A DNA stretch of 64,000 nt, from positions 107,866-171,865 of the forward strand of contig JBMFRC010000006.1 of assembly GCA_049968235.1 (NCBI GenBank), given 5' to 3'. Below are positions 43,525-64,000 of the stretch, piece by piece. Under the pieces are notes generated by a model that searched no databases, was not told the DNA's origin, and worked only from the letters and a program-made list of their open reading frames with translations. The position numbers and the translations under genes were made by a program. How positions within the stretch are numbered: position 1 is the first letter of the stretch; the number at the start of each line of letters is the position of its first letter. This DNA is from Candidatus Hydrogenedens sp. (GTDB lineage Bacteria > Hydrogenedentota > Hydrogenedentia > Hydrogenedentales > Hydrogenedentaceae).

Positions 43525-44988
43525 GTGAATATGGCTGTTGCACCCATTAACTTTCCCAAAATTCATTCAGGTCTTCCATACAAAATCAAAGATATTAAAT
43601 TAGCAGAATTGGGCAGAAAAGAAATTGAATTAGCAGAGCATGAAATGCCCGGATTAATGGCTCTTCGCGAAAGATACGCTACGAAACAGCCATTAAAAGG
43701 TGCCCGTATTATGGGCTCCCTCCATATGACAATCGAAACTGCTGTTCTGATTGAAACTTTAAAAATATTAGGTGCAGATGTCCGTTGGGCTTCGTGTAAT
43801 ATTTACTCTACTCAGGACCAGGCTGCCGCTGCTATTGTTGCTACGGGAACTCCTGTCTTCGCATGGAAAGGTGAAACACTGGAAGAATATTGGTGGTGCA
43901 CCTACCAGGCAATGTGCTTCCCAAATGGTCAAACACCCAATATGATAGTAGATGATGGAGGAGATGCAACATTACTTATTCATCGTGGATACGAATTAGA
44001 AGAATATGCCCGCAAAAATGGAAAACTTCCTCCTATTATCGATGGACATAAAGAACTCCAAATTATAGACAGTTTGCTTCATCAGATTTATCAAGAAGAC
44101 CCTGATCGCTGGCATAGGACCGTCGAAAACTGGATTGGCGTATCCGAAGAAACAACCACAGGCGTTCATCGACTATATCAAATGATGAAAGAAGGAAAAC
44201 TACTCACCCGTGCTATGAATGTCAATGATTCCGTAACCAAATCTAAATTCGATAACCTTTACGGCTGTCGTGAATCGTTAGGCGATGGGTTAAAACGAGC
44301 TACCGATGTGATGATTGCCGGAAAAACAGTCGTCGTTGCTGGTTATGGTGATGTTGGCAAAGGTTGTGCCCAGGCAATGCGCGGATTAGGTGCTCGTGTT
44401 ATTATTACTGAAATTGACCCTATCTGTGCTTTACAAGCGGCAATGGAAGGTTATGAAGTAATGAGAATGGAAGACGCAGCTCCGATTGGCGATATTTTTG
44501 TTACTGCAACAGGCTGTTGCGATGTTATTCGTGGCGAACACATGCTTAAAATGAAACATCGGGTTATTCTCTGCAATATCGGACATTTCGACGCAGAAAT
44601 TGATGTAGATTGGCTCGAAAAACAGGAAAATATTCGTGAAGAAAACATCAAACCGCAGGTAGACAAATTCATCTTCCCAGATGGCAAAGAAATCATTTTA
44701 CTTGCCCGTGGTAGATTGGTTAATTTAGGCTGTGCAACAGGACACCCCTCCTTCGTTATGTCCAATTCATTCACAAATCAAACACTCGCACAAATCGCCT
44801 TATTTACCGAACCCGAAAAATATGAACGAGGAAAAGTTTATACACTACCTAAAAAATTAGATGAAGAAGTTGCCCGTTTACATCTTGAAAAAATAGGAGT
44901 AAAATTAGACCAGCTTACTCAAAAGCAAGCAGACTACATTGGCGTCCCTATTGATGGACCCTACAAACCCGACCACTATCGCTACTAA
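43525..44988 (+). CDS. ahcY: adenosylhomocysteinase
   Basis: 487 aa. NAD-binding [23 protein letters not shown]. The long-form insertion is present. Confidence 0.9.
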
Positions 44989-48488: not shown

Positions 48489-49187
48489 TCAAACACCTTT
48501 TTCTAAATTAAAAACAGGGTATTTGTTTAAGGGGCATTGTGAGCATTTAGATATTTTTCTACAATAATCTTTTCCTGTCCAGACAATAAGCCCATGATAT
48601 TCTTTATAAATATGGACATCTCGAGGTAAATATTTGTGAAAATAGTTTTGTATCTCATTATAATTTAATTTTTCATTGAGAAGTCCATGTCTTGAAAAGA
48701 TTCTTTTGGTGTATGCATCTACAACAAAAATCTGATGTCCACATGCATATAGTAAAATATCATCAGCAGTTTCGGGACCGATACCTTTTATATTTAGTAG
48801 TTCATTTCTCAATTCAATTGTATTTTTGTGTTTCATTTTTTCAATTTTTCCATCATATTTGTCAATCAAATAATTACAAAATATGATGAGCCGTTCCGCT
48901 TTTTGTCGGAAATATCCTGAGGGGCGAATAGCCTGTTCTAATTGATTTTTATTACATTGGACTATTTTATAAGGGTTGAGTAATTGTTGGTTTTTCAAAT
49001 TCTCTATGGCTTTTTCCACATTAGTCCATGCTGTATTTTGTGTTAATATAGCACCTATAGCTATTTCAAATGGGGTATCACCGGGCCACCAGCCTGTTGG
49101 GCCATAAAAATCCGATAAGGTATTATAAATATCCATTAATTTTGGTTGTTCTATTGTCTCTCTCTTCTTCCTATTACAAAACTTCAT
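48489..49187 (-). CDS. HhH-GPD superfamily DNA glycosylase (endonuclease III-like)
   Basis: ILTQNTAWTNVEKAIENL and LNIKGIGPETADDILLYA (HhH-GPD). C-terminal CRKISKCSQCP partial Fe-S loop. Confidence 0.7.
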   Translation of the reverse strand: MKFCNRKKRETIEQPKLMDIYNTLSDFYGPTGWWPGDTPFEIAIGAILTQNTAWTNVEKAIENLKNQQLLNPYKIVQCNKNQLEQAIRPSGYFRQKAERLIIFCNYLIDKYDGKIEKMKHKNTIELRNELLNIKGIGPETADDILLYACGHQIFVVDAYTKRIFSRHGLLNEKLNYNEIQNYFHKYLPRDVHIYKEYHGLIVWTGKDYCRKISKCSQCPLNKYPVFNLEKGV

Positions 49188-49189
49188 GT

Positions 49190-50080
49190 TTATGTTATTC
49201 TTTCAACTTCATTCCGTATTGCTCGGATGTGTTCAGGTGTGGTTCCACAACATCCGCCAATAATTCTGGCTCCATTTTTATAAAAATTAAAAACATATTT
49301 TGCCAATATTTCCGGTGTTTCCGGATAATGAATTCCTTCATCAGTTAATTGAGGTTGCCCTGCATTGGGATATACTAAAAAGGGTATTTCTTTTTCAAAA
49401 GCATACATTTTTTGCAATAGGATATTCATGTCCTCAACGCTTAATGTGCAATTTACCCCAAGAATAGAAACTCCTATTTGTTTCATCTCTTGAATAAACA
49501 TTTCCGGTGTTGTACCCATAATCGTGTTAAAACGTTCTCCGATACTACTTCTCATAAAAGTAAAACTGACAACTATCTCCAATTTTGTATTTTCTTTTAC
49601 AGCATATACAGCACATCGAGCTTCATCCAAATCGGACATTGTTTCAATTGTGCAAGAATCTGCTCCCCCTTCTTCTAAGGCAATAGCCTGCTCACGGAAT
49701 GCTTCATACAACTCATCTTCGGATACATCACCCATCATTATAAATTTACCACTGGGACCGATAGAAGCAAGAACATGATGCTCTTCCCCTATTGCTTTTC
49801 TTGTTAGATAAGCAGATTTCCTGTTGATTTCTTTTGCTTCATCTTCTAAACCAAAAGACTTTAATTTTATCCGATTTCCACCGAAACTATTCGTTGAGAC
49901 CAAATCGGCTCCTGCTTCCTTATACGCAATGGCAATATCACCTATGATGTCCGGATGTTTAACATTCCATAGTTCTGGACATTCCCCTGCCTGCATGCCT
50001 GCTTTTATTAATAATGTTCCCCATCCCCCATCACCGACCAGAATTTTACCCGCCTTTATTGATGCTAAAATACTATCCAT
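49190..50080 (-). CDS. homocysteine S-methyltransferase domain protein (MetH Hcy-binding-module-like)
   Basis: The start was moved to the internal MDSIL Met at 50080, which overlaps the upstream stop by 1 nt. KILVGDGGWGTLL, GVNCT and GGCCGTTPEHI supply the Zn-binding Cys triad of Pfam S-methyl_trans. Confidence 0.8.
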   Translation of the reverse strand: MDSILASIKAGKILVGDGGWGTLLIKAGMQAGECPELWNVKHPDIIGDIAIAYKEAGADLVSTNSFGGNRIKLKSFGLEDEAKEINRKSAYLTRKAIGEEHHVLASIGPSGKFIMMGDVSEDELYEAFREQAIALEEGGADSCTIETMSDLDEARCAVYAVKENTKLEIVVSFTFMRSSIGERFNTIMGTTPEMFIQEMKQIGVSILGVNCTLSVEDMNILLQKMYAFEKEIPFLVYPNAGQPQLTDEGIHYPETPEILAKYVFNFYKNGARIIGGCCGTTPEHIRAIRNEVERIT

Positions 50081-50919
50081 TAACTTTTTTCTTCTCCCAT
50101 CCTTTTTATTAAGTGTTTCCATGTTTCTTTCACTAAAAAACTATTTGGGGCATCTTTTTCAACCTGTAAAAACAATTCCCATGGGAAAGCAATTGTTAAA
50201 TAGTTATCACCTATCTGCTTTTTAACATTTAATCGTGCAGAAATATCTGTCAAACCAATAACCGATTTAGGCTCTTCACCTTCTTTTATATATGCCCAAA
50301 TACCTATTGTCTGACATCCTGCTGAATACGGAGCAATGACGCTATTCATTGTTCTACTACGGAAATTGGCAAGGATTATTAATGCTGACAACTGATGTGG
50401 CTCCACTAAAAAAACGACCGTCCTGGGTTGTTCAATATCAGAATTCACTTGTGATAAAGGCTTGAAGATAACATAATCATATGGGATATCGATAATGGGT
50501 AATGATTGAATAAAATTCTGAACTTGCTCCGGTGCGGATAGATACCCTTCTCCATATAAGAAATCCTGTATAAATTCAGGTGTAACTAAATTTCTAATTT
50601 GTTCTGCGACACCTTCGCCAATAGGATTCCCCTTATTACCTGTCGAAAGAAATCTACAAAAACAATCTTCACCTCCGGGAAAATCTTTATAACAATTTCC
50701 GAAACCAAGTCCGATACCACCACCCCAACAGCCATAGGTCTCCCGAGAGAATACCGCTGTCTTCCCCTTGGCAGAACTAACGAACCACCACATTACACAA
50801 CCCCATTTGCCAGGTTTAAATTCTATCGCATGTTCTGGTTTTTGATTTGACCATAATATCGCTACAGGCTCATATTTCAAAGATAATAAATCCGAAAGAA
50901 TCGTTTTCATACTTTTCAC
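50080..50919 (-). CDS. Cys-rich conserved hypothetical protein, DUF169/COG2043-like
   Basis: 279 aa. Motifs KWGCVMWW, YGCWGGGIGLGFGNCY, GEDCFCRF, YSAGCQTIGIW. I assigned it to DUF169 from memory of the family pattern, not from a search. Confidence 0.5.
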   Translation of the reverse strand: MKSMKTILSDLLSLKYEPVAILWSNQKPEHAIEFKPGKWGCVMWWFVSSAKGKTAVFSRETYGCWGGGIGLGFGNCYKDFPGGEDCFCRFLSTGNKGNPIGEGVAEQIRNLVTPEFIQDFLYGEGYLSAPEQVQNFIQSLPIIDIPYDYVIFKPLSQVNSDIEQPRTVVFLVEPHQLSALIILANFRSRTMNSVIAPYSAGCQTIGIWAYIKEGEEPKSVIGLTDISARLNVKKQIGDNYLTIAFPWELFLQVEKDAPNSFLVKETWKHLIKRMGEEKS

Positions 50920-51597
50920 TTAACTTGCTAATCCTAATTTTTCATCGAGATATTCAATACAACCTTGTGGGTCTGGGGAATAGGCATCTGCACCTATTTT
51001 ATTGCAAAAGTCTTGTGTCAATGGTGCTCCTCCTACTACTATGGTAACATCAGGAACTTCCGATTTCAGGACTTTAACTGCTTTCTCCATGTTAATCATT
51101 GTAGTTGTTAACAGGGCACTCATTCCGACAACAGCACCCGGATTTTCTTTTAATACTTGAAGGAATTTTTCAGGGGAAGTATCAACGCCCAAATCTATAA
51201 CTTTCCAGCCAGCACCTTCCATCATCATTCGAACAAGATTTTTACCTATATCGTGTAAATCCCCCTGAACTGTTCCTATAATAAAAATTCCTTTATGTTT
51301 TGCTTCGCCCCGTTCAAAAGCACTTTTTAAAAAGGGCATACCCGCATTCATTGCTCGCGCTGACATTAAAACATCCGGAACAAACACTTCATTACAACTA
51401 AACTTTTTACCAATAACACTCATACCTTTCATCAAGCCATCACTTAATATTTGACTTGCAGGTATTCCCATTGCAAGTGCTTGTTGAACTAATTCTTCTG
51501 CTCCATCCTGTCCTTTTAAGTCAGGTGGATAAGGAGAATTTTTGTTAATTTTCCCTCTTTCAACGCAAGTTGCAATTTGTTCCAAAATATTTTCCAT
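50920..51597 (-). CDS. cobalamin-binding corrinoid protein (B12-binding_2 cap + B12-binding Rossmann domain)
   Basis: GTVQGDLHDIGKNLV (DxHxxG), then ...GAVVGMSALLTTT and VVGGAPL, typical of MetH-like and methyltransferase corrinoid proteins. Confidence 0.75.
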   Translation of the reverse strand: MENILEQIATCVERGKINKNSPYPPDLKGQDGAEELVQQALAMGIPASQILSDGLMKGMSVIGKKFSCNEVFVPDVLMSARAMNAGMPFLKSAFERGEAKHKGIFIIGTVQGDLHDIGKNLVRMMMEGAGWKVIDLGVDTSPEKFLQVLKENPGAVVGMSALLTTTMINMEKAVKVLKSEVPDVTIVVGGAPLTQDFCNKIGADAYSPDPQGCIEYLDEKLGLAS

Positions 51598-51660
51598 AGT
51601 TATTTCCTTCTCTTGTTTATAAACCTTTGTTAGATAAACTCTCTTTTAATTATTAATAAA

Positions 51661-51984
51661 TTAAGAAATCCTTTTCCAATTGTGACCCCCGCCTTTTTTA
51701 CATGGGACATTGCCATAAGGGCTATCCTTTGACCTTATTAGTAAGCCACATTTACTACATTGATAATTTCTATCTCCGACTTCACCCAAACAACGCCAGG
51801 AATGTCCACCGCCTGCATTATAACTTCCCATCATGGGTTGATTTACTGATTCTATATGCGTCCCACATTTGGGGCAATAATAGTTTTTTAGGGATTTTAC
51901 TTCGGCTAATGTGGAATGAGTAAGAAGAAATAGAAAAAGAATTAAACACATTATAGTTATGAGAAAATATATTTTTCGTTTCAT
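51661..51984 (-). CDS. small secreted protein with a duplicated CxxCG...GGGHxW module
   Basis: Signal peptide. YYCPKCGTHIES...GGGHSWRC and YQCSKCGLLIRS...GGGHNWKR form an internal duplication. Confidence 0.4.
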   Translation of the reverse strand: MKRKIYFLITIMCLILFLFLLTHSTLAEVKSLKNYYCPKCGTHIESVNQPMMGSYNAGGGHSWRCLGEVGDRNYQCSKCGLLIRSKDSPYGNVPCKKGGGHNWKRIS

Positions 51985-52090
51985 AATAAATCTCCTTTCC
52001 AGATTGTTATATTTTCTATAATAACATAGTTAATATATAAAAATGATATAATTCCTCCGTTCAAATCAAATTCAATCTTTAAGTATTAGC

Positions 52091-53275
52091 ATGAATATTC
52101 CAGTACAAGAAAATAAAAAAGAGATTTCTAACCTATCCTTATTTCAACTTTGTTGGGAATTTTTGAAAATAGGGACAATTGGTTTTGGTGGGGGCTGGGT
52201 AGTAATTTCACTAATTCATAATAGTTTTGTAAAACAAAAAAGACTTATCAGTGATGAAGAGTTTGCCATAGGAATTGGTCTCAGTCAATTTTTAGGGGCT
52301 TTCGCTGTAAATACAACTTCATTTGTTGGTAGAAAATTGAAGGGGATAAAGGGTTCTATTTTATCTACATTTTTCTTTTTGCTTCCTTCCTTTGTAATCG
52401 TCTGCATTCTTACAGGATTTTATTTCAGATTCAATAAAACATTTGATTTTGGGAATATATTAAAAGGCATTTCTCCTGTTATTATCGCACTTATGCTTTC
52501 TACTGCATTTGATTTATCTATTAAGATTAAGAAGGACATTGTATTTATACTCATTCTGGGTTTTGTAATTATCGGTGGGCTATTTAATATAAATTATGTG
52601 ATATTACTTATTGCTTCTGGTTTCTTTCAAGTATTATCTATCTATACAAAAAGAGATAGAACAGATAAGAATCTCTCCCATTCTTTTTATTTTATACAGT
52701 ATCCTTTTAATTTCCTTTCAGGTGTTTCCGTTTCCTTTTCAATTATAGGAGTGAATTCTTTTTTTACCGTAGGTCTGGTGTTTTTGGGAATAGGTTTTAT
52801 CTTTTTTGGAGGTGGGTATTCACTTCTTCCACTACTTCAAAATATTTTTGTAAATAAACTTCATTGGATTTCAAATCACGATTTTATCGTAGGAATAGTG
52901 ATCAGTCAGGCGACACCAGGTCCATTTGCAATAATTGCGACTTTTATGGGGTATTATTTAAAAGGTGTTATGGGTGCTTTTATCGCAACTTTCATGATAT
53001 TTTTACCTGCATTTGTTTTCTTACAAATACTTATTGGTCTGCAAAATAACTTTAAGGATAACGAAAATGTTCAGGCTTTTATAAAAGGTATTAATATTGC
53101 CACAATAGGACAATTACTACTTTTATCTTATCACTTTTTTATTGAAATATTAACCCCTTTTTCTATCCCTTTGATTATTTTCCTAATCATTAGTTTTGTT
53201 TTGTTCTTTATTTACAAAATGCCCTCTCTTCTTCTTATTGTGGTAGGAATTATTTATGGACTTCTTTTTATCTAA
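52091..53275 (+). CDS. chrA: chromate transporter (CHR) family protein
   Basis: Two homologous halves carrying GFGGGWVV and FGGGYSLLPLL motifs. Confidence 0.8.
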   Translation: MNIPVQENKKEISNLSLFQLCWEFLKIGTIGFGGGWVVISLIHNSFVKQKRLISDEEFAIGIGLSQFLGAFAVNTTSFVGRKLKGIKGSILSTFFFLLPSFVIVCILTGFYFRFNKTFDFGNILKGISPVIIALMLSTAFDLSIKIKKDIVFILILGFVIIGGLFNINYVILLIASGFFQVLSIYTKRDRTDKNLSHSFYFIQYPFNFLSGVSVSFSIIGVNSFFTVGLVFLGIGFIFFGGGYSLLPLLQNIFVNKLHWISNHDFIVGIVISQATPGPFAIIATFMGYYLKGVMGAFIATFMIFLPAFVFLQILIGLQNNFKDNENVQAFIKGINIATIGQLLLLSYHFFIEILTPFSIPLIIFLIISFVLFFIYKMPSLLLIVVGIIYGLLFI

Positions 53276-58922: not shown

Positions 58923-59015
58923 TGGCGGAGAGAGTGGGATTCGAACCCACGGTGCCGGGTAAACCGGCACAACGGCTTTCGAGGCCGCCGCCTTCAACCA
59001 CTCGGCCATCTCTCC
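58923..59015 (-). tRNA. tRNA-Ser (anticodon CGA)
   Basis: Reverse complement reads GGAGAGATGGCCGAGTGGTTGAAGGCGGCGGCCTCGAAAGCCGTTGTGCCGGTTTACCCGGCACCGTGGGTTCGAATCCCACTCTCTCCGCCA. Long variable arm, anticodon loop CTCGAAA, T-loop GTTCGAATC, 3' CCA encoded. Confidence 0.9.
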
Positions 59016-63398: not shown

Positions 63399-63606
63399 AT
63401 CACGATGCAAACATATGTAAACCAACAATAAAATCCGTATTTAGTTGATAACAACCTTACCCGCCCCCCCCTGATTTTCCACCCACCCACCCCCGACCAG
63501 CATTGTTTCTCCTAATCCCTATCTTTTATACTCCACTCTCTAATACCACAAAATATAATAATTTACCCCCTTTATACGATAATGCTGGTCTATTTTCCTC
63601 TAACTT

Positions 63607-64000
63607 TTTTTATTTTGTGGGAAGTGCCCGCTCTGCTATAATGCCAGTTGACGTTGACTTTGAATTGTTTGTGCTTTGTTTTGAAGGAAGTGCTCGCTCT
63701 GCTATAATTATCTGCATTAGAGTTAAAGCATCAATCATGCTATGTTTTGAGGGAAGTGCTCGCTCTGCTATAATGAGCACAGTAATTAGAACATTAGTCG
63801 GATTGCTATGTTTTGAGGGAAGTGCTCGCTCTGCTATAATTAAAGCTTGCTACAAATGTGTGGAAACATTGCTATGTTTTGAGGGAAGTGCTCGCTCTGC
63901 TATAATATTTTTTCCCGAAAAATAATATCTCTTGAAGCTATGTTTTGAGGGAAGTGCTCGCTCTGCTATAATCTTCGGTATGTGAACGTTCATCTTCATC
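63607..64000. CRISPR. CRISPR array running off the window end: 36-nt repeat GCTATGTTTTGAGGGAAGTGCTCGCTCTGCTATAAT, 30-nt spacers
   Basis: Repeats at 63607 (degenerate 5' half), 63673, 63739, 63805, 63871 and 63937. Spacers at 63643, 63709, 63775, 63841 and 63907 (30 nt each) and 63973 onward (cut off). Repeats 3-6 are identical, repeat 2 has 2 mismatches, repeat 1 is degenerate. Confidence 0.9.

Follow-up and report, generated by a model that had tools for sequence, protein, structure and literature searches.

The 64,000-nt stretch of a contig of Candidatus Hydrogenedens sp. considered here (the window, to which all coordinates refer) contains, on the minus strand between positions 49190 and 51597, three tightly packed genes for a stand-alone corrinoid protein (CP), a protein of the DUF169 family and a stand-alone homocysteine S-methyltransferase (HcyMT). 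With a probability of about 0.58, CP and HcyMT are the core of a split, modular cobalamin-dependent homocysteine methyltransferase, and the DUF169 protein is a co-transcribed passenger. The pair is read in this way because of the domain identities and catalytic motifs of the two proteins, and because of the corrinoid-specific partners that recur beside them in relatives. For the DUF169 protein the role of passenger is the most likely one because its gene is solitary elsewhere, the protein keeps the residues typical of its family and has a fold unlike that of the corrinoid methyltransferases, and a gene for an endonuclease III (EndoIII)-like protein is coupled to the operon just as tightly. The three coupled genes described in an earlier, sequence-only reading of this DNA are confirmed by the open reading frames (ORFs) and by Pfam, and both CP and the stand-alone HcyMT fit the split, multi-component B12-dependent homocysteine methyltransferase that it had proposed.

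In such a system the cobamide would be carried by CP, bound in the His-on mode via the DLHDIG motif; a separate methyltransferase would methylate Co(I), and HcyMT would activate homocysteine (Hcy) at a Zn(Cys)3 site and take the methyl group from methyl-Co(III) to yield methionine. Both the activity, i.e. methyl transfer from the methyl-corrinoid to homocysteine, and its direction are proposed on the precedents of MetH and MtgC/MtgE. The donor methyltransferase and the reactivation factor of Hydrogenedens would lie outside the operon and would have to be encoded elsewhere in the genome. The DUF169 gene would have been inserted between the CP and HcyMT genes in an ancestor of the lineage, its product having a separate function of its own and being merely co-transcribed, as would also be the case for the DNA glycosylase gene found downstream.

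The corrinoid protein and the homocysteine methyltransferase

CP (225 aa; positions 50920-51597) matches the Pfam profiles PF02607 (E 6e-18) and PF02310 (E 1.5e-24) and has the features of a corrinoid-binding module, namely the four-helix cap, the Rossmann domain and the DxHxxG...SxL...GG signature, the His-on motifs being found as DLHDIG at residue 113, SAL at residue 160 and GG at residue 189. The protein had previously been called a MetH-type B12-binding protein with DxHxxG; the motif is indeed there, but, judged by sequence similarity, CP is nearer to the stand-alone methylotrophic corrinoid proteins of the MtgC/MttC type than to the B12 module of MetH. Thus, among the NCBIfam models MtgC scores 191 bits, pyl_corrinoid 174 bits and metH 124 bits, while among the proteins of the PDB 1y80 scores 170 bits (E 5e-49), MttC 139 bits and the B12 module of MetH 91 bits.

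HcyMT (PF02574, E 1e-71) was listed as an ORF of 310 aa at positions 49190-50122, which overlaps the DUF169 gene by 43 nt. However, a start at the ATG at position 50080 is backed by the orthologues and by a database protein of 296 aa (P0121), to which the product is 100% identical, so that the gene extends over positions 49190-50080 of the minus strand; this ATG is preceded by GGAG and overlaps the DUF169 stop codon by 1 nt (TAATG). The protein has the homocysteine-binding barrel of PF02574 with its three cysteine zinc ligands and its DG/Glu residues: Cys211, Cys277 and Cys278, along with Asp17-Gly18 and Glu146 for homocysteine binding, are invariant in 18 family members. In the PDB the Hcy module of Thermotoga maritima MetH (1q7m) aligns over the full length with E 2e-48 (169 bits), as opposed to ~1e-17 (~68 bits) for BHMT and MmuM, and the protein is 31% identical to a full-length MetH; it also matches the NCBIfam BHMT model with 220 bits, a score that lies under that model's cut-off. 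Members of the family, of ~295 aa and 46-56% identity, are found in other Hydrogenedentes, in Bacteroidales and on many metagenomic contigs.

The pair outside the Hydrogenedens lineage

The genes that accompany HcyMT in other organisms provide the comparative part of the argument. A metagenome scan added 80 HcyMT loci, whose neighbours were clustered, the cluster representatives being annotated with Pfam; the counts that follow refer to the 29 loci that come from outside the Hydrogenedens lineage and have flanks of 2.5 kb or more in both directions (L-numbers designate retrieved loci). A URO-D-family gene was found near HcyMT in 15 of these 29 loci, a CP gene in 13 and the two together in nine; a short Met_synt_B12-like (PF02965-like) activation protein and a CobW-like GTPase were found in nine loci each, a RACo-type reductive activase in two and DUF169 in none. 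A pterin-binding gene is absent from every CP-HcyMT locus inspected, and DUF169 from all those outside the Hydrogenedens lineage.

The nearest outgroup (L092, with neighbours labelled Hydrogenedentes) has the order MFS, URO-D, CP (72% identity to the window protein) and HcyMT (56%). Two further loci of Hydrogenedentes carry, respectively, two URO-D genes followed by CP, Met_synt_B12 and HcyMT (L177), and MFS, three URO-D genes, CP, HcyMT and, directly after the latter, MtaB (L178); a Bacteroidales locus (L093) has CP, URO-D(-thioredoxin), HcyMT, CobW and Met_synt_B12. To judge by the nearest outgroups, the pair had URO-D genes as ancestral neighbours and, in one case, the activation protein as well. 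The position between the CP and HcyMT genes is itself variable in these relatives, being empty or occupied either by the activation protein (exactly so in L177, L101, L137 and L138) or by a URO-D gene, as in the Bacteroidales-type clusters L093, L109, L130, L150 and L173.

A widespread cluster emerges from these loci (L092, L093, L177, L178 and many of L101-L176, e.g. L145, L150, L137 and L131), comprising one to three URO-D genes, a CP of the MtgC/MttC type, HcyMT, a CobW-like GTPase, the short activation protein and, in some cases, RACo. It has the look of a methionine synthase supplied by methyl donors other than folates, and of such clusters only the version with an MttB homologue seems to have been described already (PMC9324843). 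The use of a non-folate methyl donor, as put forward in the sequence-only reading, is therefore plausible for modules of this family, whose relatives carry URO-D and MtaB proteins, but a part of DUF169 in activating such a donor finds no support. The URO-D-family protein of the nearest outgroup (L092:4080-5165; homologues P0241-P0360) shares 70-78% identity across Hydrogenedentes, Mahella, Caldicoprobacter, Atribacteria and metagenome-assembled genomes (MAGs) of the FCB group, an unusual degree of conservation that points to strong constraint or to a recent spread by horizontal transfer. A search with this protein returned matches labelled Hydrogenedentes, none of them named Hydrogenedens, most matches being without an organism name.

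Not all members of the HcyMT family are found in this setting. In Paludibacter (L095) HcyMT stands alone; in L172 (and also in L132 and L114) its gene lies between metK and metF, beside a complete MetH of 1216 aa, and it was only in L132 and L172 that a pterin-binding domain turned up. The presence of HcyMT beside a full-length MetH in some genomes implies that the family coexists with the canonical enzyme rather than being just a piece of it.

The DUF169 protein

The middle gene (positions 50080-50919) is an ORF of 279 aa from a GTG codon; the orthologues start at the ATG at position 50910, the probable start, which lies 9 nt past the CP stop codon and gives a protein of 276 aa. That this is a DUF169 protein and not a pterin-binding barrel, as anticipated from the letters, was borne out by the profile search: PF02596 is matched with E 1.3e-44 and 152.9 bits (cut-off 27), over profile positions 2-208 of 209, and the fold searches agree. 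No relative was found in NCBIfam or, by sequence, in the PDB; the AlphaFold model is not a TIM barrel and has no relative among the solved structures in the fold searches. A pterin-binding or MtrH-like barrel is ruled out by Pfam, NCBIfam, the PDB sequence search and the fold searches alike. With PF02596 as its only Pfam match, the protein does not belong by sequence to any of the known corrinoid methyltransferases (MtaB, the MttB superfamily, URO-D, MeTr/MtgD), and its model lacks the TIM barrel of the corrinoid methyltransferases that act on methyl donors. To our knowledge, all corrinoid methyltransferases known so far are TIM barrels.

The protein contains six cysteines, three of which (Cys41, Cys64 and Cys202) are invariant in 21 sequences, as well as a Gly-rich GCWGGGxGxGFGN loop, and it probably binds a metal or an Fe-S cluster, as its sequence suggests. 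All the invariant columns are shared by the window protein and 20 orthologues from at least five phyla; since the Hydrogenedens copies retain every residue that is invariant in the family, nothing points to a changed function. A recent horizontal transfer of the gene was also considered and finds no support in base composition, which is uniform, the GC content and the GC content at third codon positions (GC3) of the DUF169 gene being those of the neighbouring genes.

The distribution of the family speaks against a role tied to the pair. Orthologues with 46-56% identity occur in Thermodesulfovibrio, Nitrospirota, many Desulfobacterota/Syntrophia and Deferribacter, and likewise in Acidobacteria, Aminicenantes, Planctomycetes, Leptospiraceae and MAGs of Aquificales. 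None of the 78 DUF169 loci retrieved from other phyla (45 of them flanked by 2.5 kb or more in both directions, and 73 in one direction at least) has a relative of CP or of HcyMT beside it, the well-flanked 45 included. When two genes on each side were clustered for ~71 loci, no recurrent neighbour was found: the largest cluster, a histidine kinase in eight loci, probably reflects local synteny, and the next is an outer-membrane efflux protein in seven. Taken with the absence of DUF169 from the 29 HcyMT loci and with the confinement of the trio to a single syntenic lineage, these counts speak against the earlier proposal that the DUF169 protein is the donor-activating component of the system.

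When 1.84 billion representative proteins were searched with the family profile, 1187 DUF169 clusters were obtained. The family is single-domain: no fusion was found, the best 150 matches all being of 357 aa or less; on plasmids, tblastn gave zero matches. The literature consulted on DUF169, PF02596 and COG2043 contains passing mentions only, with no assigned function. In one case a DUF169 gene is drawn adjoining a gene for an hgcA-like corrinoid protein of Nitrospina (10.1101/648329). HgcA-like genes were looked for near DUF169 with the motif N[VI]WC..GK, which has 0 matches in all fetched loci and in the window.

Gene packing and synteny

The CP and DUF169 genes are separated by 0-9 nt, depending on the start codon of the latter, and the trio is thus as compact as had been described. 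The unit is nevertheless one of four genes and not of three, as a gene for a helix-hairpin-helix (HhH-GPD) protein (positions 48489-49187, minus strand) starts 2 nt past the HcyMT stop codon. Its product is EndoIII/3-methyladenine-glycosylase-like (Pfam HhH-GPD; NCBIfam PRK13913, 130 bits), it is syntenic across all the loci of the Hydrogenedens lineage, and it is a probable operon passenger. Being clearly unrelated to methyl transfer and yet coupled as tightly as DUF169, it shows that this operon packs unrelated genes equally close. EndoIII-like genes are also found two genes upstream of HcyMT in three loci outside the lineage (L133, L134 and L165), which may be a matter of coincidence or of local synteny.

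The sequence-only reading had attached weight to the position of the DUF169 gene, seen as that of the pterin-binding module of MetH. The gene does lie between the other two, but the order CP-DUF169-HcyMT runs in reverse to the order of the MetH modules (Hcy-pterin-B12). The positional argument is weak, the slot being variable in relatives.

The closest relatives of all three proteins are those of Candidatus Hydrogenedens, the best being encoded on contig AWNW01000013 of Ca. H. terephthalaticus (88-96% identity). The trio is present in every locus of the lineage that was recovered (L008-L016 and L097-L099), with identities to the window proteins of 64-90% for DUF169, 63-90% for HcyMT and 82-96% for CP, the most conserved gene of the unit. 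However, the whole neighbourhood of ~12 kb is collinear, in the order ADH, DUF4432, T2SSE ATPase, ChrA, small zinc-ribbon protein, CP, DUF169, HcyMT, EndoIII, FBA, GlmS and AhcY; the conservation of the trio is therefore ordinary synteny and provides no independent evidence of a functional link. Among the loci recovered the trio occurs in the Hydrogenedens lineage only, and its conservation in related genomes, the lack of which the sequence-only reading had named beforehand as speaking against its proposal, fails outside that lineage. One of the loci (L015, CAZJTZ010000017.1) is labelled 'uncultured Nitrospirales bacterium'; it shares the gene order of the Hydrogenedens loci, with 70-88% identity, and is probably mis-binned or mislabelled.

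Alternative readings

Several observations weigh against a CP-HcyMT methyltransferase with a passenger between its genes. The donor methyltransferase and the reactivation factor that the pair would need were found neither in the 64 kb of the window nor in 12-kb pieces from ten related genomes; in the window there is no URO-D, MtaB, MttB, pterin-binding, MetH-type activation-domain, CobW or RACo gene, which agrees with the earlier remark that no pterin-binding or S-adenosylmethionine (AdoMet) activation module is present. Among the lineages seen, Hydrogenedens is the only one in which the pair has lost all the adjacent donor and accessory genes and has gained an interposed gene, and this is the pattern expected of non-orthologous replacement. 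The DUF169 gene has been held in its slot, with very short spacers, over the full depth of the lineage, and the Nitrospina hgcA-like gene is the only other corrinoid-related adjacency of DUF169 that was found. Furthermore, 16 of the 29 HcyMT loci are without a CP gene within 4 kb, so that the dependence of the HcyMT family on CP is not universal. That the DUF169 protein has taken the place of the URO-D/MtaB methyltransferases, of the activation protein or of both, which accompany the pair in sister lineages, as a non-TIM-barrel component with a Cys-bound metal acting either as a new donor methyltransferase or as a reductive activator, is nonetheless doubtful, and the two forms that such a replacement might take fare differently when they are set against the evidence.

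As an accessory factor, the DUF169 protein would use, for instance, a Cys-ligated metal or Fe-S cluster in the reduction or reactivation of Co(II), or in the loading of cofactor or zinc, and would stand in for the activation protein, CobW or RACo. The operon is indeed without these three, which nine, nine and two, respectively, of the 29 related loci possess; in four of the relatives the activation protein fills the very slot taken by DUF169, the three invariant cysteines and the confinement of the family to anaerobe lineages would suit such a function, and so would the proximity of a DUF169 gene to the hgcA-like gene of Nitrospina. We regard this role as unlikely, for the 78 orthologue loci, none of which adjoins any B12-binding protein, reveal no recurrent partner, and the protein contains neither an ATPase nor an AdoMet-binding domain and does not resemble RACo, RamA or PF02965; its metal binding, moreover, is a prediction from sequence. 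The other form, in which the DUF169 protein is a novel methyltransferase transferring the methyl group of a non-folate donor to the corrinoid and the trio is a complete three-component methionine synthase, appears quite improbable. Genes for donor methyltransferases such as MtaB and the members of the MttB family normally lie beside those of their cognate CP. Relatives of the window locus do place a donor methyltransferase (URO-D or MtaB) adjacent to the CP-HcyMT pair, with URO-D in the same slot in the Bacteroidales-type clusters, and in the window the tightly coupled DUF169 gene has no competitor for the task. However, the modelled protein, with no TIM barrel and no known fold relative, is unlike the known corrinoid methyltransferases, its orthologues are encoded in all 78 loci with no CP beside them, contrary to what is seen for known donor methyltransferases, the Hydrogenedens copy does not diverge at the family-invariant positions, and the trio is restricted to one syntenic lineage.

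A different question is whether HcyMT needs CP at all. The enzyme might be of the MmuM/BHMT kind and use S-methylmethionine, AdoMet or betaine, leaving CP to serve some other enzyme, and the loci in which it is encoded away from CP (e.g. in Paludibacter, or next to MetK, MetF and full-length MetH), like the match to the BHMT model, could be understood in this way. We consider this very unlikely: the protein is far closer to the Hcy module of MetH than to BHMT or MmuM in the PDB, CP is adjacent in 13 of the 29 loci along with corrinoid-specific accessory genes, and in Hydrogenedens CP is the best conserved product of an operon that, like the rest of the window, offers it no other candidate partner. 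A split cobalamin-dependent homocysteine methyltransferase made of CP and HcyMT, with DUF169 as passenger, is thus the reading that we retain.

Other features of the window

A small gene (positions 51661-51984, minus strand) lies 63 nt upstream of the CP gene, with which it may or may not share a transcript. Its product has an N-terminal hydrophobic segment and a duplicated CxxCG...GGGHxW(K/R) motif, with sub-threshold zinc-ribbon matches only, and is probably secreted; across the Hydrogenedens lineage it is kept directly upstream of the CP gene, with 43-74% identity. On the other strand, 4 kb from the operon, a gene for S-adenosylhomocysteine hydrolase (AhcY; positions 43525-44988, plus strand) is recognizable from its translation; PF05221 and PF00670 were found on its syntenic counterpart in L008. 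The gene is syntenic in the lineage, with glmS and fba between it and the operon, and AhcY produces homocysteine, the substrate of HcyMT; we may speculate that it is linked to the CP-HcyMT module.

With regard to regulation, no SAM or B12 riboswitch was found upstream of the operon, either at the Rfam gathering threshold in the window or at E<=1 in positions 51500-52200; the sole Rfam match at the gathering threshold in the whole window is a single tRNA gene (positions 58926-59015, minus strand). The scan for promoters and terminators was uninformative, with 22 promoter-like sites for 16.4 +/- 4.1 expected and zero terminators. A CRISPR-like array (positions 63604-63972) runs on to the window end, with six copies of a ~36-39-nt repeat (...GTTTTGAGGGAAGTGCTCGCTCTGCTATAAT) at an exact period of 66 nt; the ORF finder reads it as a repetitive 'protein' of 140 aa (positions 63503-63925).

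Significance

If CP and HcyMT work together as proposed, the operon is a further example of the split B12-dependent methionine synthases, in which one CP is served by exchangeable methyltransferases, an idea that is already in print for marine Alphaproteobacteria and has been put forward for MttB-type clusters. The comparative picture is the more useful by-product: a stand-alone HcyMT is found in a widespread cluster with URO-D or MtaB, CP, CobW and a short activation protein, always without a folate-binding module, which suggests that Hydrogenedentes, Bacteroidales and other organisms make or salvage methionine with methyl groups from non-folate donors. The link to DUF169 matters only if the protein acts on CP; if it did, this would be the first function for a family of ~1200 clusters that is widespread in anaerobes.

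Comparison with known systems

The closest parallel is the split MetH, or MtgBCDE, of Phaeobacter inhibens and Ruegeria pomeroyi (Price et al. 2018; Mausz et al. 2025, PMC12478193), where a betaine methyltransferase, a pterin methyltransferase and the Hcy subunit MtgE all work with a single stand-alone CP, MtgC. As in the window, the PF02574 subunit (MtgE) and the PF02310 corrinoid protein (MtgC) are stand-alone products of separate genes, there is no fused activation domain, and CP is a shared carrier that can be loaded by several methyltransferases. However, the donor side of MtgBCDE consists of the pterin-binding MtgD and of MtgB, a glycine betaine methyltransferase of the MttB family, neither of which is encoded in the window, where a DUF169 gene is interposed instead and whose relatives use URO-D-family or MtaB proteins. 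The hosts also differ, MtgBCDE being found in aerobic Alphaproteobacteria, whereas the CP of the window is of the MtgC/MttC type of anaerobes (1y80-like).

Clusters of an MttB homologue, HcyMT, CP and an activation protein have been described in Electryoneota and 'diverse bacteria' by Williams et al. 2022 (PMC9324843), who proposed a methionine synthase with an unknown donor. The likeness lies in the MetH-derived modules being encoded as separate genes and in the proposed corrinoid-dependent synthesis of methionine with a non-folate donor, which is a published hypothesis; the difference is that those clusters have a TIM-barrel donor methyltransferase and an activation protein, and the window only DUF169. 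The clusters of URO-D and CP genes with no folate methyltransferase surveyed by Kountz and Balskus 2023 (PMC10418091), for which recycling of methyl groups into methionine was suggested, include the type 1 mlp cluster, where, as in the relatives of the window locus, CP is combined with URO-D-superfamily methyltransferases and no tetrahydrofolate methyltransferase. Type 1 mlp clusters are defined by Mlp2, Mlp3, CP and Ram/RACE and have not been described with PF02574 or DUF169; the window, with no URO-D-family or RACo/RACE gene, does not contain one.

With the canonical MetH of Escherichia coli and T. maritima the window proteins share the Zn(Cys)3 site of the Hcy module and, in the B12 module, the cap, the Rossmann domain and the DxHxxG motif, but here the modules are separate polypeptides, with no pterin-binding or AdoMet activation module. 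The CP-HcyMT module itself thus belongs to the known split B12-dependent methionine synthases, of which the Hydrogenedens operon is a variant, having no adjacent donor or activation genes and carrying a DUF169 gene interposed between those of CP and HcyMT.

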